From an uncultured Gammaproteobacteria bacterium (lineage in GTDB: Bacteria; Patescibacteriota; Microgenomatia; Daviesbacterales; UBA10151): a stretch of DNA of 64,000 bases. Below the pieces are notes generated by a model that ran no database searches, had not been told where the DNA came from, and was given only the letters and a program-made list of their open reading frames with translations. The stretch covers positions 1,362 to 65,361 of the forward strand of contig CAYOSW010000005.1 of NCBI GenBank assembly GCA_964406775.1. Direction: 5' to 3'. Each line of letters starts with the position of its first letter. The stretch's first letter is position 1. The translations under genes and the position numbers were made by a program. Shown one piece after another: positions 13,818-29,901 of the stretch.

Positions 13818-14123
13818 ATGCCTCATTATGTATATATTCTGACCAACAAATCTTATACTTTATATGCCGGGTCATCGAAAAATCTGTTTCGCAGAGTTAA
13901 TGAACATACTCGAAAAAAATCTAAGTTTGGATTTACTGCAAAATATAATCTCAACAAATTAATTTACTTCAAAGAGGTTGAAACCTACCGTGAAGCTATA
14001 GAACTGGAGAGAAAAATTAAGGGATGGACAAGAAAAAAGAAAATAGAGCTGATAAAAAGTTTGAATCCGGAATTCAGGGATTTAGCGGATCAATCTGAAA
14101 CAAGTTCAGAGATCCTTCGCTAA
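13818..14123 (+). CDS. GIY-YIG nuclease superfamily protein, YhbQ/UPF0213-like
   Basis: 101 aa ORF starting MPHYVYILTNKSYTLYAGSSKNLFRRVNEH, the GIY-YIG N-terminal motif. Plus-strand gene lying between the minus-strand rpsJ and rplC genes. Confidence 0.75.
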   Translation: MPHYVYILTNKSYTLYAGSSKNLFRRVNEHTRKKSKFGFTAKYNLNKLIYFKEVETYREAIELERKIKGWTRKKKIELIKSLNPEFRDLADQSETSSEILR

Positions 14124-14145
14124 GAGCTCAGGATGACGCTTCTCG

Positions 14146-14454
14146 TCACATCTTAACTTCGATATCAACGCCTGCAGGTAATTCCAAGTGCATTAAGGAA
14201 TCGATTGTCTTATCTGTCGGTTCAATAATCTCAACAATTCTTTTGTGAACTTTAATTTCGAAAGCTTCCTGGGAATTTTTATCGGTAAATGTGGATTTCG
14301 GGACTGTAATAACGGATCTTTTTGTGGGTAAAGGGATCGGGCCGGCAATTTTTGCACCTGTTCGCAAAGCAGTATCAAGCAACTGCTCGCAAGTGCTGTC
14401 TAAAACTCTATAATCAAATGATTTAAGTCTGACTCTAATTCTGCCTTTTGCCAT
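14146..14454 (-). CDS. rpsJ: 30S ribosomal protein S10
   Basis: 102 aa ORF with a typical S10 N-terminus (MAKGRIRVRLKSFD...L...KRSVITVPKS). Confidence 0.95.
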   Translation of the reverse strand: MAKGRIRVRLKSFDYRVLDSTCEQLLDTALRTGAKIAGPIPLPTKRSVITVPKSTFTDKNSQEAFEIKVHKRIVEIIEPTDKTIDSLMHLELPAGVDIEVKM

Positions 14455-14493
14455 ATTTCCCTTTCAACGTGCCAATTATACACCCTATATACC

Positions 14494-14514
14494 AAAAAAG
14501 AGCCTTTTGGGCTC
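14494..14514 (-). terminator. rho-independent terminator downstream of tuf
   Basis: Plus strand aaaaaag agccttttgggctc. On the minus strand this is the hairpin gagcccaaaaggctc followed by a UUUUUU run. It lies 25 to 45 nt after the tuf stop. Confidence 0.6.
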
Positions 14515-14538
14515 ATTTTGTATGAGATTTCATCTCAT

Positions 14539-15717
14539 TTAGGAGATAATTTTAGTAATAACTCCTGCTCCAACGGTTTTACCACCTTCGCGGATAGCAA
14601 ACCTTAAGCCTTCTTCCATAGCAACCGGAGTAATAAGTTTTACGTTAATTTTAGTTGTATCTCCGGGCATAGCCATTTCAACACCTTCAGGAAGTATAAC
14701 TTCTCCGGTCACGTCAGTTGTTCTGACATAAAACTGAGGTCTGTATCCTTTAAAGAAAGGTGTGTGTCTTCCGCCTTCGTCTTTACCCAAGATATAGATT
14801 TCAGCTTCAAATTCTGCGTGAGGTTTAATGGATCCCGGTTTTGCGAGAACTTGTCCGCGCTCTACATCGTCTTTTTCAATTCCGCGGAGCAATACTCCGG
14901 CGTTGTCTCCGGCTTCTCCCTGATCAAGTAATTTGTGGAACATTTCGATACCTGTTACAACTGATTTAGTTGTAGGTCTGATTCCGACAATTTCGATTTC
15001 CTCGTTGATCTTAACAACTCCTCTTTCGATTCTTCCTGTTACAACGGTTCCGCGTCCTTTAATTGAGAAAACGTCTTCAACAGCCATAAGGAAAGGCTTG
15101 TCTTTTTCGCGTACAGGGGTCGGAATCCATTCGTCTACCGCATTCATTAAGTCTTCTATTTCTTTTACTGCTTCTGCATCGCCTTCAAGAGCTTTTTTAG
15201 CAGATCCGCGGATAATAGGTGAATTTGAATCAAATTCATATTTCTTAAGTAAGTCGCGAACTTCTTCTTCAACAAGCTCAAGAAGTTCAGGATCGTCAAC
15301 CATATCGCATTTGTTAAGGAAAACAACAATAGCCGGAACTCCAACTTGTTTTGCAAGCAGTAAGTGCTCTCTTGTCTGAGGCATAGGTCCGTCCGGAGCG
15401 GAAACAACGAGGATTGCACCGTCAGTCTGAGCTGCACCGGTAATCATATTCTTGATGTAGTCTGCGTGACCAGGCATATCGATGTGTGCGTAGTGTCTTT
15501 TTTCTGTTTGATATTCCTGGTGAGAAATGTTGATTGTGATTCCGCGGGCTCTTTCTTCAGGAGCTGAATCGATTTGGTCGTATGCTCTGAATTCTGCCAT
15601 TCCTTTGTCTGCGAGGACTTTGGTAATAGCTGCGGTTAAGGTTGTCTTCCCGTGGTCAACGTGACCCATTGTTCCGACGTTTACGTGTGGTTTTGATCTG
15701 TCAAATGTTCCTGCCAT
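14539..15717 (-). CDS. tuf: elongation factor Tu
   Basis: 392 aa ORF with [23 protein letters not shown] and NKCD GTPase motifs. Confidence 0.97.
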
Positions 15718-15878
15718 TTTAGTTTATTTATTTTACTTTAACTAATTTAATTTTTCAATGCCTAGCCCAATAAGTCGAATTCTTCGACTTGCGCCTATCG
15801 GCATAAAAAACCAGCCGTAAAGTCAAGCTGGATTTGAGAATCATACACAATGTGTTTAAAAAATGCAAGGGGTGTATT

Positions 15879-15898
15879 TTGAGGCTAATTAGCCTCAA
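15879..15898. promoter_or_regulatory. perfect 20-nt palindrome in the divergent tuf / ORF208 promoter region (possible operator)
   Basis: ttgaggctaattagcctcaa equals its own reverse complement. It lies 18 to 37 nt upstream of the ATG at 15916. No U-run follows it on either strand. Confidence 0.35.
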
Positions 15899-15915
15899 AA
15901 ACAACGGTCGGGTTA

Positions 15916-16542
15916 GTGTCAAAGTTTCGTCCAGCAAGCCGGTCAGGGTTCATCTATAGTTTCCGTATGTCAGCCCAACCGGAAGCAGCAGTCGGCTATA
16001 GCCGTTTATTTCAATACTCCGCTACGGCAGAAGAGAGAGGTATAGTTGCAGACCAACCTGCACCGGAAATAAATCCGTCAGCACTTTCGGAGCTTTTAAG
16101 AGATGCTCTCCCCATCGGCCGGCCCGGTGAACTGGAACTCAGACACCCTTTCAGAGTTATTATTACGGCCTTATCGGTGACGGGAGACGATTACGCTGCC
16201 TACTTACCCGATGTTGAATCCGCACTCGATAAAACAGATACCGGACAGGTTACCGAAATTGGCGTCAGCGTTACTTTAGCCGGATCCGATATTCAGCCTG
16301 ACCGCGAAGCAGGACCTTTTATTAATCCGCTTCGTCTTTATGACGGAAAAACCGGATCCCTGGGTTTAAGCACAGTTACAGCTAACTTCCTCCTGGCTGC
16401 CGGAATAAGAAGACAGGCCGGAAGGATAAGAACGGGGTTTTCCCAGCCTCACGATACCCGGGATATGTACGGCTTTGCAAAACAAAGGACCGACCGGATG
16501 ATTGCCGGGCAGATTGAACCGGTTATCAGACTTAATACTTGA
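15916..16542 (+). CDS. hypothetical protein (A/G/R/P-rich, no recognisable domain), GC-richer than its surroundings
   Basis: 208 aa uninterrupted ORF in a segment that is visibly GC-richer than the flanking genes. No motif recognised. Inserted between tuf and fusA, on the strand opposite to both. Confidence 0.45.
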   Translation: MSKFRPASRSGFIYSFRMSAQPEAAVGYSRLFQYSATAEERGIVADQPAPEINPSALSELLRDALPIGRPGELELRHPFRVIITALSVTGDDYAAYLPDVESALDKTDTGQVTEIGVSVTLAGSDIQPDREAGPFINPLRLYDGKTGSLGLSTVTANFLLAAGIRRQAGRIRTGFSQPHDTRDMYGFAKQRTDRMIAGQIEPVIRLNT

Positions 16543-16574
16543 TAATCTTCTTATATATTTATATGGTTAAGTAA

Positions 16575-16952
16575 GTGAAGCATCAGTCAGGAATTGCCCA
16601 GGTTTATTTTCTTTTGATTATTCTTGCCGGAATTGCGATTTCTGTTTTCCTTGTTCAATATACTCAGGTTTTTAAACCCAAAGCTTATTCAGACGATGAG
16701 CTTGCCGCTTATTGCCAGGAAATTACCCAAAACAATACACCTAAAGGAGCCGGTCTTATCAGAATACCTGCCACGGCTCTGGACGGAAGATTTCAGGTCA
16801 TTGATGACTCGGTGGTTGACACCCAAAGCGGAGCGGCATTCTTTTACCTTGATTCATCAGACGGAACTCTGCGGGTACGGCGGAATCTTGATAATACCAA
16901 CGATAACGAAGAGAATAACCAGTTTATTGAAGTTTATATAGATAACCCTTAG
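16575..16952 (+). CDS. small membrane-anchored or secreted protein
   Basis: 125 aa ORF with an N-terminal hydrophobic helix (VYFLLIILAGIAISVFLV) and a polar, Asn/Asp-rich C-terminus. Ends 6 nt before the fusA stop, so the two genes are convergent. Confidence 0.45.
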   Translation: MKHQSGIAQVYFLLIILAGIAISVFLVQYTQVFKPKAYSDDELAAYCQEITQNNTPKGAGLIRIPATALDGRFQVIDDSVVDTQSGAAFFYLDSSDGTLRVRRNLDNTNDNEENNQFIEVYIDNP

Positions 16953-16957
16953 AAGAT

Positions 16958-19099
16958 TTAACTTTCAACTCTTCCGGTAAATCCGGAATCAGCAATAACT
17001 TTTTGAGTGATATTTGAAGGAACGGGCTCGTAATGTGATGGTTCAATATATGCTGTTGCTCTTCCCTGGGACATTGAACGGATAGCGGTAATATAGCCAG
17101 AAAGTTCAGCCAAAGGAACGAAGGCGTTGATAACAGTTGCATTTCCCCTCTTTTCGGTTCCCTGGATCTGGGCTCTTTTTGAGGATAAGTCTCCGATTAA
17201 ATCTCCCATAAATTCATCAGGAGTTGAAACCTCAACCTTCATTATCGGCTCAAGGAGAATCAAACCTGCTTTTTTGGCAGCTTCGGAAAGTCCTAAGGAA
17301 CCGGCAATCTTAAAGGCCATTTCCGAAGAATCAACATCGTGGAATGATCCGTCGTAAACCGTAACTTTAATATCCACAACCGGGAATCCTGCAAGCAGTC
17401 CGGTATCTTCTTTTTCTTCAACACCCTTACCGATAGGCGCAATGAATTCTTTCGGAATAGCTCCTCCGACGATTTCGGAAACGAATTCACGTCCGGTTCC
17501 TCTCGGGAGAGGCTCAATTCTGAGTAAACAGTGACCGTACTGACCGCGTCCTCCGGTTTGGCGCACATACTTACCTTCTCCTGTTGCCGGAAGAGTTATT
17601 GTTTCTTTATAGGCAACCTGAGGATCTCCGACGTTGGCTTCAACTTTAAATTCCCTCTTCATACGGTCAACGATAATTTCCAAATGAAGCTCACCCATTC
17701 CGGAAATTATTGTCTGTCCGGTTTCAGGGTTGGCTTTAACTCTGAAAGTCGGATCTTCTTCTGCCAGTCTTTGCAGAGCGAGTCCTAATTTTTCCTGATC
17801 GGATTTGGTTTTAGGCTCTATTGCAAGTGAGATAACGGGTTCTGCAAAGTTGATCGATTCCAAAACTAACGGATTTCCTTCATCAACAATTGAATCTCCG
17901 GTAATTGTATCTTTAAGACCCACAACCGCAACGATTTCTCCAGCATATGCTTCATCAATTTCTTCACGGTCGTTGGCGTGCATTAAAAGCACCCGGCCAA
18001 TACGTTCTTTGATTTGTTTTGTAGAATTGTAAATAGTTGATCCGGCTTTTAATGTTCCGGAATAAACTCTGACATAAGTTAAACGGCCGACGTGAGGATC
18101 AATCTGAATTTTAAAAGCGAGAGCCCCGAGAGGTGCATCTTTTGTGTTTGACTGAGTTACTTCTTCTCCTGTTTGGGAATTTTTACCCTTAACGTTCGGG
18201 ATATCAAGAGGTGAAGGTAAAAATTCCATAACCGCATCGAGCATTGGTTGCACACCTTTATTGCGCAGTGATGAGCCTGCCATAACCGGAACGATCTTTT
18301 TAGCGATAACTGCAGCTCTTAACGCTTTTTTAAGCTCATCGATTGAGATCTCTTCACCGTTTAAGTATTTCTCGAGCAGAACCTCGTCAGTTGAGGCAAT
18401 CTCCTCAACTAATTTCTCGCGGTGTTTTTTAACTTCATCAACCATATCGGCCGGAATGGGCTGTTCCTCAAATTTAGCGCCGGTCTGATCACCGAGCCAA
18501 ATCCAAGCCTTTTCGGTTAAAAGATCAACTATCCCTTTGAAATCGTTTTCAACACCAATAGGTAAGTTATAAGGAAGAGCATTCGCACCCAGGCGGTCAC
18601 GGGCGGATTGGATAGTTCCCAAAAAGTCAGCGCCTAAAACATCCATTTTATTGGAGAAGGCAATCAAAGGTACACCGTATTTATCTGCCTGTCTCCAGAC
18701 AGTTTCGGTTTGGGACTGAACACCTGAAGCCGAATCAAGAACTATGACTCCCCCGTCAAGCACACGAAGCGAACGCTCAACCTCAACTGTAAAGTCAACG
18801 TGACCGGGAGTATCGATTAAGTTAATCCGGAATTCTTCATCTTTGAAAGGACCGGATTTGGGAGTCCAGAAAGTGGTAACAGCTGCGGATACGATAGTAA
18901 TACCGCGCTCGCGCTCCTGTTCCATCCAATCGGTGGTGGTTGTACCTTCATCAATATCACCGATCTTATAAGTACGTCCGGTATAAAAAAGAATACGTTC
19001 GGTGGTAGTAGTTTTTCCCGCATCAATGTGGGCAATGATCCCGATATTTCTGATACGGTCTAACGGAAAATCGCGTTTTGTTTTCGTTGTAACTGCCAT
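16958..19099 (-). CDS. fusA: elongation factor G
   Basis: 713 aa ORF with [20 protein letters not shown] and NKMD motifs and the EF-G domain IV/V region. Confidence 0.97.
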
Positions 19100-19138
19100 A
19101 GCGAGATATTCTACCTTGAAGCGGAGATAAAAACAAGG

Positions 19139-19399
19139 CTAAGATTGATGAGCTGTAGAATTCTCCGGATTACCCTCAAGATCTTTGAGTATTTTCTTGG
19201 TTTCGCCGATACGGGCGGATAGAACTTCCCCCTGTTCCGTCAGCATCTGATAGGCTGCATTCTCGCTATTATCGCCCATATCCGTAGCGTCGCCTCTTTG
19301 TTCCATAATTGAGGCATACTCCTTCTCAAGAGTTGCGAGCTTCTCGCTCCACATTTTTACTTTTTCTTGCTTTATCTTATTGTTTGCCATAAAACACAA
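19139..19399 (-). CDS. stand-alone GreA/GreB N-terminal coiled-coil domain protein (mini-Gre)
   Basis: 86 aa ORF carrying the Gre finger-tip motif GDNSENAAY (compare canonical GDLSENAEY) within a predicted coiled coil. There is no C-terminal FKBP-like domain. The true start is probably MANNKIKQ. Confidence 0.6.
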   Translation of the reverse strand: MCFMANNKIKQEKVKMWSEKLATLEKEYASIMEQRGDATDMGDNSENAAYQMLTEQGEVLSARIGETKKILKDLEGNPENSTAHQS

Positions 19400-19527
19400 A
19401 GCCCCCTTGAGATTAATTCTTGGGGGTATTTGATGGTTACATACTAAAAAAGATTTCCGGAAATGTCAAACCTTAAGAGAACGATTGAATCCCTCTATAT
19501 CTGCTGTGCGTGTGGTAAAATTGCCGA

Positions 19528-20826
19528 ATGGAATTTGAGGTAATTGAACAAACTTATCCTGAAAACTTCCGCTCGGACATAACGCGCGAGCTCGGCGACC
19601 ATATTAACAAACGCCACAGCATCGTCTTTATAGGTATGCGCAGGGTCGGCATATCTAATTTCTTAAGGTTTTTTCTGTATCACAAACAACTCCGCCAAAA
19701 AACTTCGGCAGACAAACACCTCCTTATCGCCATCGATTTAAACGATCTTATCGAACGGACTATTCCTTCTTTTTGGGTATTAACGTTAAAGAGAGTTCTT
19801 GATACCGTCGAAGGGTCCGATTTTGCCCCTAAAACTAAAAAATATATCGAGAATCTATTTCTTGACGGTATCCAGTCCAAAAATACTTTTCTTCTTATAG
19901 AAAATATTAAAAAAGCTCTAAGTAAAATTATTTCCGAAGGTGTTTTCCCGACAATTTTTTTCATCCGGTTTGACAGGATTTCCGAATCCGCAACAGCCGA
20001 TTTTCTGGCAAATCTCGAAGGACTTAAAAGCTCAACCCACGGCAAGTTAAGCTATGTGTTCACAACTTCGCGCGGATTAAACTCCATCTCGCCAAAAGTC
20101 TTCTCGCACACTTCTCTTTCTCTTGCCGAAACGGAGATATTTTTAAAACCGGCAAGCCCGGAAGATCTTCAGGTAATTTGCGATGCCTATATCAAGAGAT
20201 TCGGGCTCCGGATTTCCGCGGAAACGGAGAAAGAATTAATTAAGCTTACCGGAGGCTACGTCCAATACCTCCAGCTGGCTCTAATTACCTTAAACGAGCC
20301 TGAGGTGAATAATAAAAAAATCAGTAATCTGTCCGAACTCTTAGAAAACGACGAGCGGATCAAACTTCAATCGGAAGAACTTTGGGAAGGCCTTACCGGA
20401 GATGAACAGGAAATCCTGCTTAAAGTTGTTGAGGGTGAAAAACTTACGGAAAAAGATTTAAAAGACAATAAATATTTATCAGACAGCGGATTTATGGTTA
20501 AACTCAAAAACGGCTTCAATATTTTCAGTCCGCTTTTTGAAAAGTTCCTGAAGAAAAAAGCCGAAAAAGGGGAGGGGAGTAACGGGAAAATCGATCTCTC
20601 CAAAAAAGAGCATCTGCTATTTTCCTTCCTTAAAGACAATTTAGGTGAGATTTGTGAGCGGGAAGCCATAATTGAGGCCGTCTGGCCGGAAGAGGAGGCT
20701 TTAGGGGTCTCTGATTGGGCAATTGACCGCCTTGTCGCCCGCCTGCGCAAAAAGATTAAGGATGAAGGCGAATTTGAAATAGTAACAATAAAAACCCGGG
20801 GATTTAAATTAATAGGAAAAAATTAA
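19528..20826 (+). CDS. STAND/AAA-like NTPase with degenerate P-loop fused to a C-terminal OmpR/PhoB-type winged-helix DNA-binding domain
   Basis: 432 aa ORF. The N-terminal region has IVFIGMRRVGISNF, which fits GxxxxGxS with Ile in the Lys position, and a Walker B-like LLIAIDLND. The C-terminus (EREAIIEAVWPEE...DWAIDRLVARLRKKIKDEG.FEIVTIKTRGFKLIG) matches the trans_reg_C wHTH. Confidence 0.55.
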   Translation: MEFEVIEQTYPENFRSDITRELGDHINKRHSIVFIGMRRVGISNFLRFFLYHKQLRQKTSADKHLLIAIDLNDLIERTIPSFWVLTLKRVLDTVEGSDFAPKTKKYIENLFLDGIQSKNTFLLIENIKKALSKIISEGVFPTIFFIRFDRISESATADFLANLEGLKSSTHGKLSYVFTTSRGLNSISPKVFSHTSLSLAETEIFLKPASPEDLQVICDAYIKRFGLRISAETEKELIKLTGGYVQYLQLALITLNEPEVNNKKISNLSELLENDERIKLQSEELWEGLTGDEQEILLKVVEGEKLTEKDLKDNKYLSDSGFMVKLKNGFNIFSPLFEKFLKKKAEKGEGSNGKIDLSKKEHLLFSFLKDNLGEICEREAIIEAVWPEEEALGVSDWAIDRLVARLRKKIKDEGEFEIVTIKTRGFKLIGKN

Positions 20827-21161
20827 CTGTAATTTCTGGTTCTGTCCAGATATGGCGCTTCTTTCCAATCGTGACTTATTCTTCTTCCTGAAAAGCTGGA
20901 GTCTGTAGCTACAGATAAACTTCTGAAATGGTGGCCGTCAGCACCGTGCTCACGTTCTATACCATCTTCATCAGGATATTTGTCTCCATAGTCAGCCCAA
21001 ACAGTCACGGCAGTTTTAGCCAGTTCCGCCGGCTCATCCCAATTTATTTTCGCTCCGTAGGGTAAAACCTCAAAACCTAAACCTTTAGGCTTCAAATGGT
21101 GAAACCTTTCTCTTGTAGTTCTTCGTTCTGTCCCGGGTCTGCCTGCGATATGTTCTTTCAT
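20823..21161 (-). CDS. hypothetical protein (His/Asp/Gly-rich)
   Basis: 112 aa ORF in a relatively GC-rich segment. No recognisable motif. First gene after the rpsG 3' remnant. Confidence 0.35.
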   Translation of the reverse strand: MKEHIAGRPGTERRTTRERFHHLKPKGLGFEVLPYGAKINWDEPAELAKTAVTVWADYGDKYPDEDGIEREHGADGHHFRSLSVATDSSFSGRRISHDWKEAPYLDRTRNYS

Positions 21162-21197
21162 AAGAATTTTGGGTTTTTGTTGGCGGAAGTTTCTGCA

Positions 21198-21225
21198 CCT
21201 ACCATCTAAAGTGGGCGCAGGCCTT
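21198..21225 (-). repeat. diverged duplicate of the rpsG 3' terminus (last 8 codons plus stop)
   Basis: The minus strand reads AAG GCC TGC GCC CAC TTT AGA TGG TAG, encoding KACAHFRW*. The true rpsG end at 21291-21317 reads AAG GCT TTT GCG CAT TTT AGA TGG TAA, encoding KAFAHFRW*. That is 19 of 27 nt identical, and most of the differences fall at third-codon positions. Confidence 0.5.
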
Positions 21226-21290
21226 AAAAGATTGTAGTTCTACAAGACGACGATCATTGTAGAAGCGAAAATCTCGCAAGGCTTTGCGCT

Positions 21291-21764
21291 TTACCATCTA
21301 AAATGCGCAAAAGCCTTATTGGCTTCAGCCATTCTGAGAGTATCTTCTTTCTTCTTTGCTGCGTACCCCTTGCCTTCTGCAGCGTCCATCAATTCCTGGG
21401 CTAATTTTAAGTGGAATCCGTGGAATTCTTTATTTGATTTAGCGCGGGCACCGGCGATTATCCAGCGGATCGCCAAAGATTCTTTTCTTTCTCCTCTGAC
21501 TTCAACGGGAACCTGGTAAGAGGCTCCTCCAACCCTTCTCGGACGGACTTCCATCTTCGGAGCAACGGTTGCAAGAGCGGTATCCAAAACAACCAAAGGT
21601 TTTTTGCCTGTTTTTTCGATTTGTTCGAGTGCATCATAAACCAATCTTTGTGCGGTAGTTTTTTTACCGTCACGCATTATTCTATTGATAATTTTGGTTA
21701 TAATTTTGGATCCGTAAATCGGATCTGCCTGAATTATTCTTTTCGGTGCTTTACCTGATCTCAT
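21291..21764 (-). CDS. rpsG: 30S ribosomal protein S7
   Basis: 157 aa ORF with S7 family motifs (PVVEVRPRRVGGASYQVPVEV). Immediately downstream of rpsL. Confidence 0.95.
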   Translation of the reverse strand: MRSGKAPKRIIQADPIYGSKIITKIINRIMRDGKKTTAQRLVYDALEQIEKTGKKPLVVLDTALATVAPKMEVRPRRVGGASYQVPVEVRGERKESLAIRWIIAGARAKSNKEFHGFHLKLAQELMDAAEGKGYAAKKKEDTLRMAEANKAFAHFRW

Positions 21765-22207
21765 TAGCTTGCAGCTGCGGTCTTAGGACCTGCGACTGCT
21801 CCCCCTTTCTTCTGGCCGTATTTGCTTCTGGATGTCTTTCTCTTTGCAACTCCGGACAAATCGAACTTACCGCGGATTAAATGATATTTAACTCCGGGCA
21901 AATCCTTAACTCTTCCTCCACGGACCAAAACGATACCGTGCTCTGCTAAATCGTGACCTTCACCCATAATATAAGCTGTAACTTCGGTTCTGTTGGACAA
22001 TCTGACCCTCGCTACTTTACGTAAAGCCGAATTAGGTTTTTTCGGAGTCATTGTTCTAACCAAAGTAACAACTCCCCTTTTCTGAGGGTTAAAGTTAGTA
22101 ACATATTTACGGTCTTTTGCATTATAAGAGCGTCTCAGGGCTGTCGCCTTGATTTTTCTTGCTGACGTCTTACGTCCTTTTCGTACTAATTGATTAATTG
22201 TTGGCAT
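21764..22207 (-). CDS. rpsL: 30S ribosomal protein S12
   Basis: 147 aa [16 protein letters not shown]-terminus, the [10 protein letters not shown] loop and the [13 protein letters not shown] motif. Confidence 0.95.
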
Positions 22208-22318
22208 CTCTGTTTTTTTATATTCCGGGAGAAAGAATCAAAAGATTACACGAAGTAAAATTTAAATTCCTTCATCCCTAACCGGGATTACTCTAATCCG
22301 GAAATCCGGACCAGTAAT

Positions 22319-25300
22319 TTAGGATGGTTCCATTGCGGCCCGTTCAGGGCTTGTTGGAATCAACCGGCCAATAATAACATTTTCTTTCAGTCCAATCAAC
22401 TTGTCGATCTTACCTGAAGCTGCTGCTTCCGAAAGAACTGTTGTTGTTTCAACGAATGAAGCTGCTGACAGGAAGCTTTCGGTCTGGAGTGAAGCTCTGG
22501 TTATACCCAAAACGATTACTCCTGCAGTTGCCGGCTCTCCGCCCTCTGCCAAGACTCTGGTGTTCTCTTCTTCGAATCTGGTTTTATTTACAACTTCTCC
22601 GGGCAATAATACTGTATCGCCTTGAGATTCGATTCTGACTTTATCACTCATCTTGCGGACGATAATTTCAAAGTGCTTTTCATTAATATGCACACCCTGG
22701 GATTCGTAAACTTCTTTAGCTGCGTCAACAATGTATCTTTGAGCTTCTTTAAGTCCTTTTACTCTTAAGACTTCTTTAATATCCAAATGTCCTGCGGCAA
22801 GTTGAGTTCCTGCGGAAATCAACTGACCGTCTTCAACCAAGAGATCTGCTGTGATCGGAATTGCATATTCCCTTTCTTCGTGAGGCTTGGTTGTGGTTCT
22901 GACCCTGATAACTCTTCCTGTTTCGGTGTTAGAGATAGTAACTTTTCCGGCAATTTCCGAAATCGGGCTGGTTGATTTTGGAGTTCTGGCCTCAAAAAGT
23001 TCTTCAACACGGGGCAAACCTTGTGTAATATCGATACCGACAACTCCTCCTGAGTGGAAAGTACGCATTGTGAGCTGTGTACCGGGCTCTCCGATAGCCT
23101 GAGCTGCAACAACTCCGACAGGTGTTCCGAGACCTACCGGTTTTCTGGATGACAGATCAAGACCATAGCAGGCTGCACAAATTCCATATCTTGCTTCGCA
23201 GGTAAGAGGAGCGCGCACTAAAACTTCAGTAACTTCACTCTTGTAAATTGCTTCTACTTCCGGCTCTTCAAGATAAATTCCATCCGGAAGAAGCTGTTTT
23301 TTAGTTTTCGGATCTACAACTTTTCCGAGCAACTTGCGTCCCAGGAATCTGGTTGAATTTGATGCCGGATTATCGTGAATAACTTCAACAGGGAATCCGT
23401 TTTGGGTTCCGCAGTCCTCAATTCTGACGATCATATCGTGGGATACATCTACCAATCTTCTGGTCAGATATCCTGCATCGGCGGTTCTGATAGCACGGTC
23501 TGCAACTCCCTTTCTCGCTCCTCTACAGGAAGTGAAGTACTCGAACACTCCGAGTCCTTCACGGTAGTTGGATTTTGTAGGAAGTTCCACGATTTTACCT
23601 GTCGGATCAACTGAGAATCCTCTCATTCCGGCAGTTTGCGCGATCTGAGCTGTAGTTGCACGGGCTCCTCCGGACTGCATAATGATCTGGATAGGATTAT
23701 CAGGATCGATTGCCGCAAATGTTTTTCTGACAATTTCGTCTCCAATTCTGGTCCAGACTTCCTGGGAAAGAGCGCGTTTTTCTTCGCTGGTAATGATTTC
23801 CTTTTTAAAGTTATCTTCAATATCGGCAATTTCTTTATCACCCTTAGCAATTAAGGATTTCTTCTCAGGGATAATTTTGTTGTCAAAAATACCGACTGAA
23901 AGTCCGGAAATTGTTGCGCCCCAGAAACCGAATTCTTTAATATCGTCAATCAGTTGAGCAACTTCATCTTTGGTGAAGGCTTTAAATGCCTGCATTATGA
24001 TTCTTGAGATAACTCCGGCGTTAATTGTTTCGTTGATAAAGCGGAGTGATTCAGGCAGGAAGTTGTTAAAAATAATTCTTCCGACTGTTGTTTCGATAAT
24101 TGCATCGCCGATTTTAGCTTTAATCGGAGCTCTTAAATCAAGATTTGCTGTTTGGAATGCAAATTCGGCTTCTTCTCTTGAGTAAACCTTATCGGTAAGC
24201 ACTTTTGTCTTATCAATCGAAGTTACGAAGTAAGAACCCAATGCCATTTCACGGTTAGGAACGTTGATAGGTGATGAATTCGCAGGGCGCAGAATGTTTT
24301 CTTTTGCCATCATCAGATTTTTAGCTTCTTCTTTGGCTTTTTCGGACAAAGGTACGTGAACAGCCATTTGGTCTCCGTCAAAGTCGGCATTAAATCCGGC
24401 ACAGATACAAGGGTGAATCTGGATTGCGTTTCCGTCAATTAAGATCGGGAAGAATGCCTGAATACCTAATCTGTGCAGGGTAGGCGCACGGTTGATCAGA
24501 ACCGGGTGATCTTTGATAACTTCTTCCAAAATATCCCAAACCTCCGGAGGTCTGAATTCCAAAACATTTTTAGCTCCTTTTACGTTTGAAGCCAGGCCTC
24601 TTGAGATAACTTCGCGCAGTACGAAAGGCTTAAACATCTCAAGCGCCATTTCTTTAGGAAGTCCGACCTGAGCCAATTTAAGTTTAGGACCGACGATAAT
24701 AACCGAACGTCCTGAGTAATCTACCCTTTTTCCGAGCAAATTCTGTCTGAATCTTCCCTGTTTTCCTCTCAACATCTCGGAAAGTGATCTTAACTGGTGG
24801 GTTCCGGCTCTTCTGGTTGTTCTGGATGAAGAATCGATTAATGAATCGACTGCTTCCTGAAGCATTCTTTTCTCGTTTCTTAAAATAATTTCAGGAGCAC
24901 CGAGATCAATAAGTCTTTTCAAACGGTTATTTCTGTTGATAACTCTTCTGTAGAGATCGTTTAAGTCCGAAGTTGCAAATCTTCCTCCCGGTAATTGCAC
25001 CATAGGGCGCAAGTCAGGCGGGAGAACAGGCAATATTGTCAAAACCATTGAAGCCGGAGAAATTGTTGATTTTCTCATTCCTTCAACGAGTCTTAATCTT
25101 TTAGTGGCTTTGATATGGCGCTGACCTGAAGATTTTGAAACCTCGACTCTAAGCTCTGAAGCTAATTTATCCAGATCAATCTTATTTAATACCTCAAGCA
25201 ATGCTTCAGCTCCCATCTTAACTTCAAGGAAGTCTGCAACTCCGTACTCATCAAGTTTGAAGTATTCATCCTCCGAAAGAAGTTTCATCGGATTAATATT

Positions 25301-26005
25301 TTTAACCAATTCGGAAACTGTTTTGTAAATTTCCTCAAGCTGAGCGAGCTCTACCTGGTTTTGTTCTTTGAGCTGAGCAATTTTTCTTCTTGCTTCGATT
25401 TGGAATTCGGCAGCCTGGAGCTCGAATTTCTCGTCATTGCCGATTTTCTTCTTAAGTTCTTTTAATTCTCCGGTAGTTACGTCTTCCGCTTCCTTGATTG
25501 TTTTTTCCAAAGCTTCTTTTGAAGCGTCCTGTTTTTCGCCGAGCTGTTTTTCAAGTTTTTCGATAGCTTCAGCTTTTTTATCAGTATCAATTCCGGTAAC
25601 CAGGTATGAAGCAAAGTAAATTATTGCCTCAAGATTCTTCATAGTTAAATCAAGAATCAGGGATAATTTGCTCGGCGCACCTTTAACAAACCAGATATGG
25701 GCCACAGGCGAAGCTAAAGTAATATGACCCATTCTCTCGCGTCTTACTTTGGATTGTGTGACCTCAACTCCGCACTTGTCGCAGATAACACCACGGTAAC
25801 GGATTCTTTTATATTTTCCGCAGTAACATTCCCAATCCTTTGTCGGGCCGAAAATATTTTCAGCAAATAATCCGTCTTTTTCAGCTTTCAAAGTCCGGTA
25901 ATTAATTGTTTCCGGGCGTGTAACCTCACCGAATGACCAGCTTCTGATAATATCGGGTGAAGCGATAGCTACTTTAAGTTGATCAAAATCGAGTAAATTA
26001 TTCAT
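22319..26005 (-). CDS. rpoC: DNA-directed RNA polymerase subunit beta'
   Basis: 1228 aa ORF with the N-terminal zinc finger (CYCGKYKRIRYRGVICDKCGVEV), the NADFDGDQM catalytic loop and the trigger-loop region. Confidence 0.97.
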   Translation of the reverse strand: MNNLLDFDQLKVAIASPDIIRSWSFGEVTRPETINYRTLKAEKDGLFAENIFGPTKDWECYCGKYKRIRYRGVICDKCGVEVTQSKVRRERMGHITLASPVAHIWFVKGAPSKLSLILDLTMKNLEAIIYFASYLVTGIDTDKKAEAIEKLEKQLGEKQDASKEALEKTIKEAEDVTTGELKELKKKIGNDEKFELQAAEFQIEARRKIAQLKEQNQVELAQLEEIYKTVSELVKNINPMKLLSEDEYFKLDEYGVADFLEVKMGAEALLEVLNKIDLDKLASELRVEVSKSSGQRHIKATKRLRLVEGMRKSTISPASMVLTILPVLPPDLRPMVQLPGGRFATSDLNDLYRRVINRNNRLKRLIDLGAPEIILRNEKRMLQEAVDSLIDSSSRTTRRAGTHQLRSLSEMLRGKQGRFRQNLLGKRVDYSGRSVIIVGPKLKLAQVGLPKEMALEMFKPFVLREVISRGLASNVKGAKNVLEFRPPEVWDILEEVIKDHPVLINRAPTLHRLGIQAFFPILIDGNAIQIHPCICAGFNADFDGDQMAVHVPLSEKAKEEAKNLMMAKENILRPANSSPINVPNREMALGSYFVTSIDKTKVLTDKVYSREEAEFAFQTANLDLRAPIKAKIGDAIIETTVGRIIFNNFLPESLRFINETINAGVISRIIMQAFKAFTKDEVAQLIDDIKEFGFWGATISGLSVGIFDNKIIPEKKSLIAKGDKEIADIEDNFKKEIITSEEKRALSQEVWTRIGDEIVRKTFAAIDPDNPIQIIMQSGGARATTAQIAQTAGMRGFSVDPTGKIVELPTKSNYREGLGVFEYFTSCRGARKGVADRAIRTADAGYLTRRLVDVSHDMIVRIEDCGTQNGFPVEVIHDNPASNSTRFLGRKLLGKVVDPKTKKQLLPDGIYLEEPEVEAIYKSEVTEVLVRAPLTCEARYGICAACYGLDLSSRKPVGLGTPVGVVAAQAIGEPGTQLTMRTFHSGGVVGIDITQGLPRVEELFEARTPKSTSPISEIAGKVTISNTETGRVIRVRTTTKPHEEREYAIPITADLLVEDGQLISAGTQLAAGHLDIKEVLRVKGLKEAQRYIVDAAKEVYESQGVHINEKHFEIIVRKMSDKVRIESQGDTVLLPGEVVNKTRFEEENTRVLAEGGEPATAGVIVLGITRASLQTESFLSAASFVETTTVLSEAAASGKIDKLIGLKENVIIGRLIPTSPERAAMEPS

Positions 26006-29000
26006 CTTCTCCTCCTTCTTTTTCCATTGCCTGCGCAGCTAAATCTGCCGCTTGAGCTTCAGAATTATCGTCGTTTTCAGCGTCCGCGTCAACCAGTCCT
26101 GCATCTTCTTCCTGCGCCTCAACTGCTTCCTTCTTAGTTTCAGGTTCACCCTGCGCATCAAGTACTTCCATAGGGCCTGTTTCAGCGTTCAATTCCGAAT
26201 CAACTCCGACTTCTCCGACGCCCAAAGCTTCTTTTGCAGCCTCAATCGCAGCGGTTTCTGTAGATGACTCTTCTTTAACCTCTTCTTCATTAACTTCCTT
26301 GACACCCATCGGGATAACTTCAATACCCAAGCTCTGAAGTTCTTTTACAAGCACTTTAAACGATTCAGGAATTAAGGCTTGTGGAATTTCAGTTCCTTTA
26401 ATTATTGCCTCGAATGCTTTAGCACGTCCGACAACATCATCGGATTTTAAGGTCAACATTTCCTGAAGTACATTCGCAGCTCCGTATGCTTCCAGTGCCC
26501 AAACTTCCATTTCTCCGAGTCTTTGTCCTCCCATTTGGGCTTTTCCTCCCAAAGGCTGTTGTGTAACGAGTGAGTAAGGTCCAGTCGAACGGGCGTGAGT
26601 TTTATCCTCAACCATATGGATAAGCTTCAGGAAGTAAGCAATACCCACAACAACATCCTGTTTGAAGTATTCGCCGGTTCTTCCGTCAATCAACTTTGAT
26701 TTACCTGAAACAGGCAAGTTAGCTTTTTGGAGCTGTTCGATTAAAACTTCTTCGGGGATTTTCTCAAAAACCGGAGCTGCAACTTTAAATCCGAGTTTTT
26801 TAGCCGCAAGTCCTAAATGCGCCTCAAGAAGCTGTCCCAAGTTCATACGGGAAAGCACTGTAACCGAAGAAATAATGATATCCAAAGGTGTACCGTCTTC
26901 CAAATGAGGCATATCGGCAGCGGCAACGATTTTTGAGATAACACCTTTGTTTCCGTGTCTACCTGCGAGCTTGTCTCCGGCTGTAACTTTACGCAGTTGT
27001 GCTACTTTTACTTTGATTCTTTGTAAAACTCCGGCTCCAAGATCATCTCCTGCTTCGCGGGAAAGGATTTCGATACCGATAACTGTTCCTTTTTCTCCGT
27101 GAGGCATTCTTAAAGAGGTATCGCGGACTTCTTTAGCTTTTTCTCCGAAGATCGCACGGAGCAACCTCTCTTCTGCTGTAAGCTCGGTCTCTCCTTTGGG
27201 CTGAACTTTACCGACTAAAATATCACCGGGAGCTACTTCCGCACCGATTCTGACGATACCTGTCTCATCAAGATTTGCCAAAGCTTCTTCGGAAACGTTA
27301 GGAATATCAGGAGTTACTTCATCCGGACCGAGTTTTGTTTCAACAACGTCGGTGTTATATTCTTCGATGTGGATCGAAGACAAAACATCCTGTTTAACTA
27401 ATCTATCGGAAATAACGATAGCGTCTTCGTAACCGAGTCCGTCATAGCTCATATAACCGATCAGTAAATTAGTTCCGAGGGATAATTCTCCGTTGTCTGT
27501 TGAGGTTCCTTCAATCAAAAGATCGTCGGTTTTGATTTTCTGACCGGGAACAACTGCCGGCTTTTGTGAATAACAAGTCATAGAAGGGGAGTTGACGAAT
27601 TTTTTAACTTTAAATTCCTGCTTCTGTCCTTTTCCGGAAAGCATAATTTTTTCTCCGTCAGCGTAAGTGATCTCTCCGTCAAAAGGAGCTCTGACTGTTC
27701 TTGCCATAGTGTCCGCAATCATTGTTTCCATTCCCGTTCCGATAACCGGAGCCTGAGGCAAAAGAAGCGGTACGGCCTGACACTGCATATGAGTACCCAT
27801 CAAAGCACGGTTTGCATCATCGTGAGCCAAAAACGGAATTAAGGAAGCTGAAGTTCCGACGATTTGCTGAGGTGAGATATCGATTAAATTAACTTTTTCA
27901 ACTTCGGTTTCAAAAAAGCTTCCGAGGTAACGTACCGGAACTCTGGGCTGGTTAATAAAACCTTTATCGTCCATCTCAACAGTTGCTTCGGTAATATAAA
28001 GATCTTCCTCATCATCTGCAGTAAGATAGATTATTTCATCTGTTGCGCGGGGCTTACCTTTTTCGAGAACTACTTTTCTGTAAGGAGTTTCCAAAAATCC
28101 GTATTCGTTAATTCTTGCGTACAAAGCTAAATATGTAACCAAACCGATGTTCGGTCCTTCAGGAGATCTGATAGGATCGATTCTTCCGTACTGGGAATGG
28201 TTAATATCACGGATTGAGAAGCTGGCTCTGTCTCTTGAGATACCGCCGGTACCTGTAACTGACAATCTTCTCAAATGGTCAATTTCGGAGAGGGGATTGG
28301 TCTGATCTAAAATCTGGGAAAGCTGTGAACTTCTGAAGAATTCGTTGATAGCCGCAATTACCGGGCGGGCATTAACTAATCCTGCAGCTGTAATCTCCTG
28401 GTCAAGAGATAAAAGACTCATTCTCTCTTTGATTACTCTTTCGAGTCTTTGCAGACCAATCCAGAAAGCATTTTGAGCAACTAATTCTCCTACCATTCTG
28501 ACCCTGCGGTTGCCTAAATGATCGATATCGTCGGTTTTTCCGTTGCCGTTAGCTAAATTGATCAGGTATTTGAGAGTTGCAACAATATCTTCCTTGGTTA
28601 AAATCCAATTTTCAGGAGAATTAGGAATATCCAAACCCAATCTCTTGTTGATTTTGAATCTTCCGACACGGGTTAAATTATATCTTCTGGCGTTAAAGAA
28701 CATGTTTTGAAGTAAAGACTTTGCAGTTTCCAAAACAACAGGGTCTCCGGGACGCATTTTGCGGAAGATCTCAAGAAGGGCTTCGTTTTGATCCTTGGTC
28801 GGATCTTTTGCCATTGTTGATTCGATATAGCGGTGTTCGCCGTTATTATCAACGCTTTCAAAATTGGTTCTGATTTCATCTTCGGAAAGACCCAAAGCGC
28901 GGAGCAAGGTTGTTGCGGCAAATTTTCTTCTACGGTCGATCTTAACGGTTAGAACATCCGAGCGGGAAACTCCGAATTCAAGCCAGGAACCGTGCTGAGG

Positions 29001-29486
29001 TCTGATTTCAGCACCGTAAAGTCTGCGTCCGGTAATAGGATCATCTGAGGCAGAAAAAAACGCTCCGGGGGAGCGTACTATCTGATTGATTATTACCCTT
29101 TCGACTCCGTTAATAATAAATGTACCTTTTTCGGTCATTTGCGGAATGTCGCCGAGGAATGCTTCCTGTTTATATGTATCGTTGTTTTGAAGGTTTGTTA
29201 AAACTACGCGGACTTTTAAAGGCGCATCATATGACATTCCCTTAACTTTGCACTGATCAGGGGTAAATCTGGGCTTGCCGAAGAAGTATTCTCCGAATTC
29301 AAGCTTCCAGTTTTTTCCGGTAAAATCCGAAACGGGAGTTATTTCATTAAGTAGTGTTCCGATTCCTTCATCGAGGAATTTTTGGTAAGAATCGCGTTGC
29401 AGGCGTGTAAGGTCTAGTTTTTTGACTTGTGTGGGTCTTTTTCCCCAGTAAAGTCTGCCGTTAATAGTATTAGACGCTGTTTGCAT
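25998..29486 (-). CDS. rpoB: DNA-directed RNA polymerase subunit beta, with roughly 100 aa acidic C-terminal tail
   Basis: 1162 aa ORF with conserved beta motifs (RFGEMEVWALEAYGAA..LQE.LT.KSDD). The family normally ends near IPESFKVLVKELQSLGIEV. Here it is followed by an E/D/A-rich tail and overlaps rpoC by 8 nt. Confidence 0.97.
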   Translation of the reverse strand: MQTASNTINGRLYWGKRPTQVKKLDLTRLQRDSYQKFLDEGIGTLLNEITPVSDFTGKNWKLEFGEYFFGKPRFTPDQCKVKGMSYDAPLKVRVVLTNLQNNDTYKQEAFLGDIPQMTEKGTFIINGVERVIINQIVRSPGAFFSASDDPITGRRLYGAEIRPQHGSWLEFGVSRSDVLTVKIDRRRKFAATTLLRALGLSEDEIRTNFESVDNNGEHRYIESTMAKDPTKDQNEALLEIFRKMRPGDPVVLETAKSLLQNMFFNARRYNLTRVGRFKINKRLGLDIPNSPENWILTKEDIVATLKYLINLANGNGKTDDIDHLGNRRVRMVGELVAQNAFWIGLQRLERVIKERMSLLSLDQEITAAGLVNARPVIAAINEFFRSSQLSQILDQTNPLSEIDHLRRLSVTGTGGISRDRASFSIRDINHSQYGRIDPIRSPEGPNIGLVTYLALYARINEYGFLETPYRKVVLEKGKPRATDEIIYLTADDEEDLYITEATVEMDDKGFINQPRVPVRYLGSFFETEVEKVNLIDISPQQIVGTSASLIPFLAHDDANRALMGTHMQCQAVPLLLPQAPVIGTGMETMIADTMARTVRAPFDGEITYADGEKIMLSGKGQKQEFKVKKFVNSPSMTCYSQKPAVVPGQKIKTDDLLIEGTSTDNGELSLGTNLLIGYMSYDGLGYEDAIVISDRLVKQDVLSSIHIEEYNTDVVETKLGPDEVTPDIPNVSEEALANLDETGIVRIGAEVAPGDILVGKVQPKGETELTAEERLLRAIFGEKAKEVRDTSLRMPHGEKGTVIGIEILSREAGDDLGAGVLQRIKVKVAQLRKVTAGDKLAGRHGNKGVISKIVAAADMPHLEDGTPLDIIISSVTVLSRMNLGQLLEAHLGLAAKKLGFKVAAPVFEKIPEEVLIEQLQKANLPVSGKSKLIDGRTGEYFKQDVVVGIAYFLKLIHMVEDKTHARSTGPYSLVTQQPLGGKAQMGGQRLGEMEVWALEAYGAANVLQEMLTLKSDDVVGRAKAFEAIIKGTEIPQALIPESFKVLVKELQSLGIEVIPMGVKEVNEEEVKEESSTETAAIEAAKEALGVGEVGVDSELNAETGPMEVLDAQGEPETKKEAVEAQEEDAGLVDADAENDDNSEAQAADLAAQAMEKEGGEDE

Positions 29487-29658
29487 AAGTAGATGGTTAC
29501 TCTTGGCGAAGCTAAGCTCCGTTTAATACACCAAAAAGGTACGCATACCTCACTAGTAGTATGCCTACCATATTTTCCAATATTTAGGTTAAGGGGTAAT
29601 ATACTATAAATCTTATAGCAATTGCAAGCAGTAACTTTCCGGTAATCCGTAAGCTGAT

Positions 29659-29856
29659 TTACTTATCTACATAAGTGTTCGGAGCAGCCGGCCCGCCCGG
29701 AACATATTCGGTTTGGACCGCAGGCTGATAACTCTCCTGGGCGCTCGGGAAAAAGCCCGTTCCGTTAACCAGCAGATAGATACCTACTGCTATACCGGCA
29801 ACCACCAGAACTATCACTGCCATAGGAACCGATCCTTTTTGAGTTAATTCATTCAT
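29659..29856 (-). CDS. small single-pass membrane protein
   Basis: 65 aa ORF with one hydrophobic helix (MAVIVLVVAGIAVGIYLLV) and a Pro/Gly-rich tail. Confidence 0.35.
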   Translation of the reverse strand: MNELTQKGSVPMAVIVLVVAGIAVGIYLLVNGTGFFPSAQESYQPAVQTEYVPGGPAAPNTYVDK

Positions 29857-29901
29857 ATATACATAATTCCTGTTTTGTAAAATTTTGTCAATGCGCAGGA
29901 G

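Follow-up and report, generated by a model that had tools for sequence, protein, structure and literature searches.

The locus described here raises the question of why the str operon (rpsL-rpsG-fusA-tuf) is interrupted between rpsG and fusA, and whether the interrupting DNA was acquired or was inherited with the operon. It lies in a 64,000-nucleotide stretch of contig CAYOSW010000005.1 (assembly GCA_964406775.1), referred to below as the window, whose minus strand carries, in order, rpoB, rpoC, rpsL, rpsG, a gap, fusA, a second gap, and tuf, as shown by the open reading frame (ORF) listing and by Pfam matches for ribosomal protein S7 and elongation factor G (EF-G). The rpsG-fusA gap occupies positions 19100 to 21290 (2191 bp) and contains three ORFs: greN (19139-19390, minus strand), encoding an 83-amino-acid (aa) stand-alone GreA N-terminal coiled coil, or “mini-Gre”; wHTH432 (19528-20826, plus strand), encoding a 432-aa protein that combines a pseudo-ATPase domain of the STAND/Orc-like kind with a winged helix and, at its C terminus, an OmpR/PhoB domain; and orf112 (20823-21161, minus strand), encoding a 112-aa hypothetical protein. 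A first-pass annotation of this DNA had reported a separation of about 2.2 kb, these three ORFs in mixed orientation, a GreA-N-only protein, and a degenerate P-loop protein with an OmpR-type winged helix-turn-helix (wHTH) domain, all of which agreed with the ORF listing, the Pfam matches, and our reading of folds and motifs. Its further proposals, that the gap differs slightly in base composition and represents acquired DNA, did not stand. On balance, the gap instead appears to be native and inherited, the usual form of the str layout for a branch of Microgenomates (candidate phyla radiation) that resembles Daviesbacteria; greN is the constant addition there, and greN-fusA forms a unit of its own.

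Loci for comparison were obtained from 80 species-representative genomes, in which the regulator locus was fetched with 10-kb flanks, and this set was enlarged by looking up exact proteins and by scanning metagenomes with a greN profile. An exact-sequence look-up of the 432-aa protein gave no record, and the near-identical proteins P0001 and P0121 were used instead. The window proteins were mapped onto all loci by tblastn, and identities are given relative to the window copies. The GC content of the insert was 0.421, versus 0.423 for the window; its strand-symmetrized tetranucleotide distance to the window fell at the 38th percentile of equal-sized sliding windows; and the third-position GC content of the gap genes was inside the spread of the flanking core genes. 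A repeat search found no direct or inverted repeats of the mobile-element type flanking the insert, and no transposase or integrase was found among the rpsG-fusA and fusA-tuf gap genes of the window and its relatives. The order rpsG-[variable]-wHTH(+)-[variable]-greN-fusA was shared by the window and by L004 to L009, L022, L025, L038, L045, L056, L091, L092, L094, and L095, and in the loci sharing the order rpsG-wHTH-greN-fusA, RpoC was 77 to 94% and the regulator 50 to 84% identical to that of the window. Nine further loci (L087 to L090, L097, L099, L100, L102, and L104), with RpoC identity as low as 68%, had greN-fusA without the regulator in the gap. Both genes kept their position even where the protein of the relative was only 50% (wHTH) or 45% (greN) identical. 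The marks of a horizontally acquired island, namely, odd composition, mobility genes, flanking repeats, and patchiness in close relatives, were thus not those of this insert, and it is the native composition, the lack of flanking repeats and mobility genes, and the conserved position that together point to a native layout. The synteny comparison proposed with the first-pass annotation accordingly placed two of the three genes, greN and wHTH432, in native positions and left orf112 as strain specific.

The remaining content of the gap varied. Among relatives, the rpsG-fusA gap ranged from ~0.9 to 6.7 kb and the fusA-tuf gap from 0.16 to 4.4 kb, and the gap genes encoded a class I aldolase, GlpX, phosphoribosyl pyrophosphate synthetase, an EamA transporter, His_Phos_1, a LuxR-type regulator, NYN and MaoC proteins, and hypothetical proteins. 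The split was not unique to the rpsG-fusA junction, since the window also has a fusA-tuf gap of 1240 bp (15718-16957). This second gap contains two plus-strand ORFs (15916-16952) of 208 aa (GC content, 0.50) and 125 aa, so that there are two opposite-strand genes in the 1240-bp gap and one in the 2191-bp gap. Neither ORF had a family match in Pfam, NCBIfam, or PADLOC, and among the loci compared, both were present only in the near-identical L004 (tblastn); the fusA-tuf gap genes of other relatives (pilin-like, carbohydrate-binding module protein, Peptidase_U49, NYN, and MaoC) were unrelated to them. Compared with the canonical str operon (rpsL-rpsG-fusA-tufA), the window thus keeps the gene order and strand, as well as the flanks, with rpoBC upstream and rpsJ and the S10 cluster downstream, whereas contiguity is broken at two junctions, the gap genes differ among relatives, and greN-fusA and tuf each have promoter-like sites of their own.

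The strain-specific parts of the insert were limited to orf112 and a small duplication of the rpsG 3′ end. orf112, which converges on the regulator gene with a 4-nucleotide (nt) overlap, belonged to no family in Pfam, NCBIfam, or PADLOC and among the loci compared was found only in the near-identical contigs L004 and L086. It differed from the L004 copy by 14 synonymous and 6 nonsynonymous codons, which suggests a translated but fast-evolving gene that is real, young, and strain specific. An origin as a relic of His_Phos_1 or of other gap genes of relatives was ruled out by the lack of similarity. The duplication comprises the last ~27 nt of rpsG, which occur at 21292-21318 and again, 92 bp downstream on the same minus strand, at 21200-21226 (direct repeat D4; 27 nt, 81% identity) as a relic second copy ending in HFRW and a stop codon. 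L004, whose contig is 96 to 98% identical, has a single rpsG 3′ end, and the window carries ~92 extra bp; a recent recombination or replacement thus evidently took place at the rpsG 3′ end.

The constant element of the gap, greN, has an ORF extending from 19139 to 19399; translation from its conserved start codon, an ATG at 19390, yields an 83-aa protein identical to P0121. This protein matched Pfam GreA_GreB_N (PF03449) with 27.1 bits (cut-off, 24.5), and NCBIfam greA models, whose N-terminal half it resembles, matched at the first ~70 positions only, far under their cut-off. Family members were 48 to 126 aa long and contained PF03449 alone, with a steady length of ~70 to 98 aa across more than 100 clusters. 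When the greN profile was run against 1.84 billion representatives, 13 matches were obtained at an E value of 1e-10 or better, all of 48 to 126 aa, and full-length GreA appeared first at an E value of ~1e-7 and above. The GreA C-terminal domain (PF01272) was found in no member of the family, and no relic of it was found downstream of greN. An alignment of 23 sequences, down to 45% identity, had 20 invariant columns centered on M-G-D-L-R-E-N-A-A-Y-Q-M-L-T-E, the invariant residues including G39, D40, E43, N44, and Y47, and greN differed from its L004 counterpart by 9 synonymous codons and 1 nonsynonymous codon. As judged from these sequences, greN is a small, distinct family of finger-only proteins and not a set of fragments. 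A side observation was that L108 carries two greN paralogues (162-377 and 1267-1470), ~1.1 kb apart.

Likeness to the Gre factors was concentrated at the tip of the finger. In a profile-to-PDB search, GDlrENaaY of GreN aligned with GDLKENAEY of GreA (residues 40 to 48 of 1grj), which makes D40 and E43 the counterparts of the catalytic GreA residues D41 and E44. The AlphaFold2 model was a two-helix hairpin (helices 2-36 and 45-72) with the motif at its tip and a mean predicted local distance difference test (pLDDT) score of 86, and its best Foldseek match was GreA 1grj, with a root mean square deviation of 1.1 Å over 59 columns and GreB as a close second; the E values were not significant, as expected of a bare coiled coil. 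GreN therefore shares with GreA and GreB (PF03449 plus PF01272; PDB 1grj and 2p4v) the antiparallel N-terminal coiled coil and the tip G-D-x-x-E-N-x-x-Y with both catalytic acidic residues, and GreA is what it matches best in both sequence and structure, but it lacks the C-terminal globular domain that docks on RNA polymerase, and its gene sits between rpsG and fusA, often translationally coupled to the latter. DksA and TraR are small secondary-channel binders with a zinc-binding globular part and a DxxDxA tip; GreN resembles them as a small protein whose helical finger could reach the polymerase active site and differs in having a Gre-type tip and no globular part. A tblastn search of the 64-kb window and of ~1.4 Mb of related loci, which represent partial genomes, for full-length GreA gave N-terminal matches only; two longer alignments were dismissed as same-frame read-through past the greN stop codon into EF-G that was not conserved. 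The nearest full-length GreA proteins were those of Shapirobacteria, where greA lies elsewhere in the genome and has no leader hairpin. A full-length greA beside fusA in Shapirobacteria was thereby ruled out as the ancestral state, and the position of greN before fusA is presumably derived. A literature search for stand-alone GreA-N proteins or for disruption of the str operon in Microgenomates found nothing relevant.

Linkage of greN to fusA was invariable: wherever a locus spanned the junction, greN immediately preceded fusA in the same orientation, whether or not the regulator lay in the gap. Across 22 nonredundant junctions, the spacer was at most 136 nt in 19 cases and between −4 and +8 nt in seven, and it is 39 nt in the window; such short spacers point to cotranscription and to frequent translational coupling. 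The two genes share a reading frame with no stop codon between them in the window, L004/L086, and L101 but not in most relatives, so that fusion of GreN to EF-G by stop-codon read-through was ruled out.

Upstream of greN, the minus strand carries a sigma-70-type promoter (19441-19469) consisting of TTGACA (19469-19464), a 17-nt spacer, and TAGTAT (19446-19441), which matched at 10 of 12 positions and was the best such match in the region from 14300 to 22500. A promoter of the same form, TTGACTTTT-N17-TAAnAT, preceded greN in 30 of 32 loci. The stretch that separates the window promoter from the greN start codon holds a terminator-like leader hairpin (19391-19426, minus strand) formed by CCCCC (19426-19422), a loop, and GGGGG (19406-19402) and followed by CTTTGTGTTTT. 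A GC-rich hairpin with a directly abutting T-run was present in 20 of 25 nonredundant greN leaders, and two more had an AT-richer version; the hairpin began 8 to 21 nt past the −10 element. By comparison, dinucleotide shuffles gave 0.73 ± 0.88 of 25, and such an element followed 11 of the 298 other promoter-like sites present in the collected DNA (Fisher P = 1e-19), those 11 including the extra fusA promoter of L087, the rpoB leader of L056, and the L25-gene leader of L050. The stems covaried (CCCCC/GGGGG, CCTCC/GGAGG, CCTCGCC/GGCGGGG, CTCTCCA/TGGGGAG, and TCCCCT/AGGGGA). No Rfam family was found in positions 14000 to 30500, and RNAalifold predicted nothing on a MAFFT alignment of the leaders, a result attributable to variable loops that shift the register; the shuffle and background-promoter controls were used in its place. 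Judged by these controls, the greN leader element is real and conserved, and it is common to several core expression operons. In this unit, then, a strong, conserved sigma-70-type promoter would drive a short leader with a hairpin and U-run, followed by greN and fusA.

Leaders of similar form were observed at other genes. The rpoB leader of the window (~29530-29625, minus strand) combines, ahead of the start codon, a site resembling a promoter with a long hairpin (GGTAGGCATAC..GTATGCGTACC) and TTTTTGG; the corresponding element of the L056 rpoB leader is at ~9821; and L087 has a second promoter and hairpin between greN and fusA, at 1673-1750. Attenuator-like leaders may thus be present on several core expression operons.

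The second conserved gene of the gap, wHTH432, encodes a protein whose C-terminal domain matched Pfam Trans_reg_C (PF00486) at residues 354 to 428 (E value, 2e-13), with profile matches in the PDB to WalR, CovR, ArlR, and PhoB and with PhoB as the best NCBIfam match. Sequence-level matches were limited to this domain. For the N-terminal 340 residues, the predicted fold is AAA+/STAND-like, an alpha/beta NTPase core to which a helical lid and then a winged helix are appended. In the Walker A loop, which comes after strand 1, the sequence is G36-M-R-R-V-G41-I42-S43; Lys is replaced by Ile42, the same residue in all of 18 sequences, and the Walker B segment, F-F-I-R-F-D149-R150, has Arg in place of the second acidic residue; the P-loop had a pLDDT score of <50. 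The protein therefore departs from the P-loop NTPase pattern GxxxxGK[ST] plus hhhhD[DE], and the degenerate Walker motifs make ATP hydrolysis unlikely. No receiver domain (Response_reg) was found with Pfam or NCBIfam, and no BTAD, TPR, GerE, or repeat domain was detected by Pfam or fold analysis. A role in defense was considered and rejected: the sole PADLOC match (PDC-S01) scored 17.6 bits, and the gene occupies one conserved locus among housekeeping genes.

This architecture differs from those of the known STAND regulators and of response regulators. The order of NTPase and then DNA-binding domain is that of MalT/LAL proteins, but MalT ends in a LuxR-type HTH with sensor repeats, whereas wHTH432 has an OmpR-type domain, no repeats, and a dead Walker A motif. 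In SARP/AfsR proteins, an N-terminal OmpR-type domain and BTAD precede NB-ARC and TPR, an order that is reversed in wHTH432. Compared with both groups, wHTH432 is only 432 aa long, has no TPR or sensor repeats, and carries Ile for the Walker A Lys. The C-terminal wHTH domain is shared with OmpR/PhoB response regulators, from which wHTH432 differs in having a pseudo-ATPase domain instead of a receiver domain with a phospho-acceptor Asp.

Upstream of wHTH432, an extended −10 element, TGgTAAAAT (19513-19521, plus strand), ends 6 nt before the ATG at 19528. The pattern TTGnnn-N16-18-TAnnnT ending 5 to 9 nt (mode, 6) before the ATG was present in 56 of 77 distinct orthologous upstream regions, compared with 0.5 in shuffles, and a Shine-Dalgarno-like motif was present in 2 of the 77. 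Since the −10 element ends ~6 nt ahead of the start codon and 75 of 77 regions lack a Shine-Dalgarno motif, wHTH432 is probably translated from a leaderless mRNA. In 21 of the 77 regions (0.065 in shuffles), TGAC-N7-TGAC was found, in the 11-bp phase and on the forward strand only: other spacings occurred in at most one region each, and the reverse strand gave 0. Of 49 occurrences in 2.58 Mb, 23 fell in the 100-nt windows upstream of the regulator. Two to four copies abut the −35 element in many Levybacteria and in L025 and L056, with sites at ~9920-9960 in L025 and at 9939-9955 in L036, L047, L051, and L054, among others. These 11-bp-phased direct repeats upstream of the gene's own −35 element have a pho-box-like layout, a further likeness to OmpR/PhoB proteins, and are a candidate operator through which the regulator would be autoregulated in relatives. 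No TGAC direct repeats were found upstream of wHTH432 in the window, where this likeness ends; a search for the operator with relaxed settings gave 8 matches, mostly intragenic, with none in the greN-wHTH intergenic region.

The distribution of the regulator was far wider than the gap. More than 1500 full-length homologues were found, and in ~70 Levybacteria loci the orthologue lay elsewhere and not in the rpsG-fusA gap, so that the regulator is not an obligate partner of greN. In 36 of 79 loci, the next gene on the regulator's strand encoded a class I aminoacyl-tRNA synthetase, and the L25 gene was nearby; in L001 to L003 and others, the order was regulator, a gene for a 732-aa class I aminoacyl-tRNA synthetase, an ORF of ~143 aa, and the L25 gene. 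By this distribution, wHTH432 is a core, lineage-wide putative transcription factor that has moved neighborhood and is not cargo; in the subclade of the window, it would have come to lie divergently beside greN. A separate observation concerns taxonomy: dozens of TPA_asm metagenome-assembled genomes titled “uncultured Gammaproteobacteria bacterium” (L007, L009, L010, L013, and others) carry this Levybacteria/Daviesbacteria-specific gene, some also with the rpoC-rpsL-rpsG context of the lineage of the regulator, and the taxonomic labels look wrong.

Of the explanations that compete with a native layout, the one proposed first, that the 2.2 kb are a horizontally acquired three-gene cassette inserted in the str operon, is largely refuted and now very improbable. 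The mixed gene orientation, the restriction of orf112 to near-identical strains, and the 27-nt relic duplicate, which records recombination at the junction, are what such a cassette predicts, but composition is native, greN and the regulator have kept their places across a deep clade, the three genes do not move as one set (greN is found in loci lacking the regulator, and the regulator is found at other sites), and mobility genes and terminal repeats were not found. Even less probable is that greN is a decaying, functionless greA remnant that has lost its 3′ half. Only the N-terminal half of GreA is present, as a remnant would have it, but this idea is strongly disfavored by the steady length and 20 invariant positions, the 9 synonymous versus 1 nonsynonymous codon changes, the conservation of promoter, leader, and fusA coupling, and the absence of a C-terminal-domain relic downstream. 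The regulator and greN might alternatively form a functional pair, with the wHTH protein bound to the 128-bp stretch between the divergent genes, where it would govern the greN-fusA promoter as a transcription/translation-surveillance switch. The two genes are indeed divergent, and ~46 nt separate their promoters in the window; the −35 hexamers come within 3 nt of each other in L006, L008, L045, L092, and L094, each inside the spacer of the other promoter, so that simultaneous occupancy by two polymerases looks impossible; and the Levybacteria orthologue precedes an aminoacyl-tRNA synthetase gene, again a translation gene. Set against this are greN-fusA units that have the same promoter and leader without a regulator nearby, the one to four other ORFs between greN and the regulator in L005, L025, and L038, and the window itself, in which the TGAC pattern matches mostly inside genes and not in the intergenic region. 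We consider the pair doubtful, and control of greN-fusA by the regulator is possible but unsupported. The surveillance module suggested in the first-pass annotation is thus retained in one part, a Gre-finger protein tied to the core locus by synteny, and is weakly supported in the other, the joining of regulator and Gre finger into a single unit: the link of greN to fusA does not depend on the presence of the regulator, which in the Levybacteria loci lies elsewhere.

What GreN does, and how its leader acts, was weighed on similar grounds. GreN might enter RNA polymerase's secondary channel as GreA does and stimulate cleavage or rescue of backtracked complexes. The C-terminal domain of GreA is thought to give RNA polymerase binding (PMC4598747); with the docking domain missing, GreN would need a high concentration, which coupling to the highly expressed fusA could supply. 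A quite different role, improbable in our estimate, would be to partner EF-G or the ribosome as a coiled coil, or to serve as a chaperone-like factor, away from RNA polymerase. It would account for the invariable fusA linkage, the frequent translational coupling, and the missing docking domain, but the most conserved residues of GreN are exactly those of the GreA active-site tip, G-D-x-x-E-N-x-x-Y, and linkage to fusA also places greN beside rpoBC. The Gre tip residues are not known to have a role outside the polymerase active center. The leader hairpin may be a partial terminator (attenuator) like that of the Escherichia coli greA leader, GraL, which ends two-thirds of transcripts (PMC2836576), and GreA autoregulation in E. 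coli depends on the greA leader and on catalytically active GreA (PMC6829880). Both leaders combine a strong promoter, a terminator-like hairpin within a few tens of nucleotides, and a Gre-family gene next in line, but the greN leader has no sequence similarity to GraL and no Rfam match, and termination in it is a prediction from sequence. A serious competitor, which we regard as distinctly possible, is that the leader is a 5′-terminal stabilizing stem with a U-rich ribosome-loading region, generic to highly expressed operons of the lineage. The hairpin lies essentially at the RNA 5′ end, 8 to 21 nt past the −10 element, like leaders precede other core genes in related loci, and the window copy is a poor terminator; conversely, its shape is that of 3′ terminators of the same genome, such as the one after tuf (14514-14500), the U-run directly abuts the stem in 20 of 25 leaders, and the E. 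coli greA leader is a terminator (PMC2836576). The attenuator reading is rated only slightly above the stabilizer and loading-site reading.

Taken as a whole, GreN may be a minimal secondary-channel factor that replaces canonical GreA in a lineage of reduced genomes, its dose locked to EF-G by the operon and by translational coupling and trimmed by an attenuator that senses polymerase pausing or backtracking, in a loop that would match transcript rescue and fidelity to elongation capacity; this full scheme is speculative, and we hold it at low confidence. Several points weigh against the interpretation developed here. Binding to RNA polymerase is uncertain for a protein without the C-terminal domain. 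The hairpin of the window is weak (−10.9 kcal/mol; z score, −1.4), with an interrupted T-run. Like leaders precede rpoB (window and L056), the L25 gene (L050), and fusA itself (L087), so that the greN element may serve as a leader of general use instead of an attenuator peculiar to Gre genes. TGAC-N7-TGAC is absent from the greN-wHTH intergenic region of the window and from its sub-branch. Finally, greN may have been gained by an ancient acquisition at the base of the clade. Secondary-channel action and transcript cleavage by GreN are proposed from the conserved tip.

The remaining features of the region lie on either side of the two gaps. Upstream, rpoB (25998-29486), rpoC (22319-26005), rpsL (21764-22207), and rpsG (21291-21764; Pfam Ribosomal_S7, E value 4e-56) form a minus-strand run of which rpsG is the last gene. 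Downstream, fusA (16958-19099; Pfam and ORF listing) and tuf, encoding EF-Tu (14539-15717), are on the same strand, and a promoter scan placed a promoter-like site for tuf at 15758-15730. A predicted terminator lies 3′ of tuf (14514-14500); between tuf and rpsJ, GAGCCCAAAAGGCTC at 14500-14514 is a symmetric GC hairpin with T-runs on both strands and looks like a bidirectional terminator that would keep tuf and the S10 cluster apart.

The str cluster is often taken as a fixed landmark and is also used as a marker set in phylogenomics and binning; in the lineage of the window, it is loosened at both junctions and has been able to recruit a putative transcription factor. The combination of a dead STAND-like NTPase with an OmpR-type domain is a widespread, uncharacterized architecture and may offer an entry point to transcription control in uncultivated Microgenomates. 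Should GreN prove inert or a mere supplement to a normal GreA, the finding would reduce to a lineage-specific gene order. A conserved finger-only Gre protein would otherwise test the textbook view that the C-terminal domain is needed for action on RNA polymerase, and the fixed place of greN before fusA suggests that rescue of transcripts is tied, genetically and directly, to the elongation step of translation in organisms whose regulatory repertoire is minimal.

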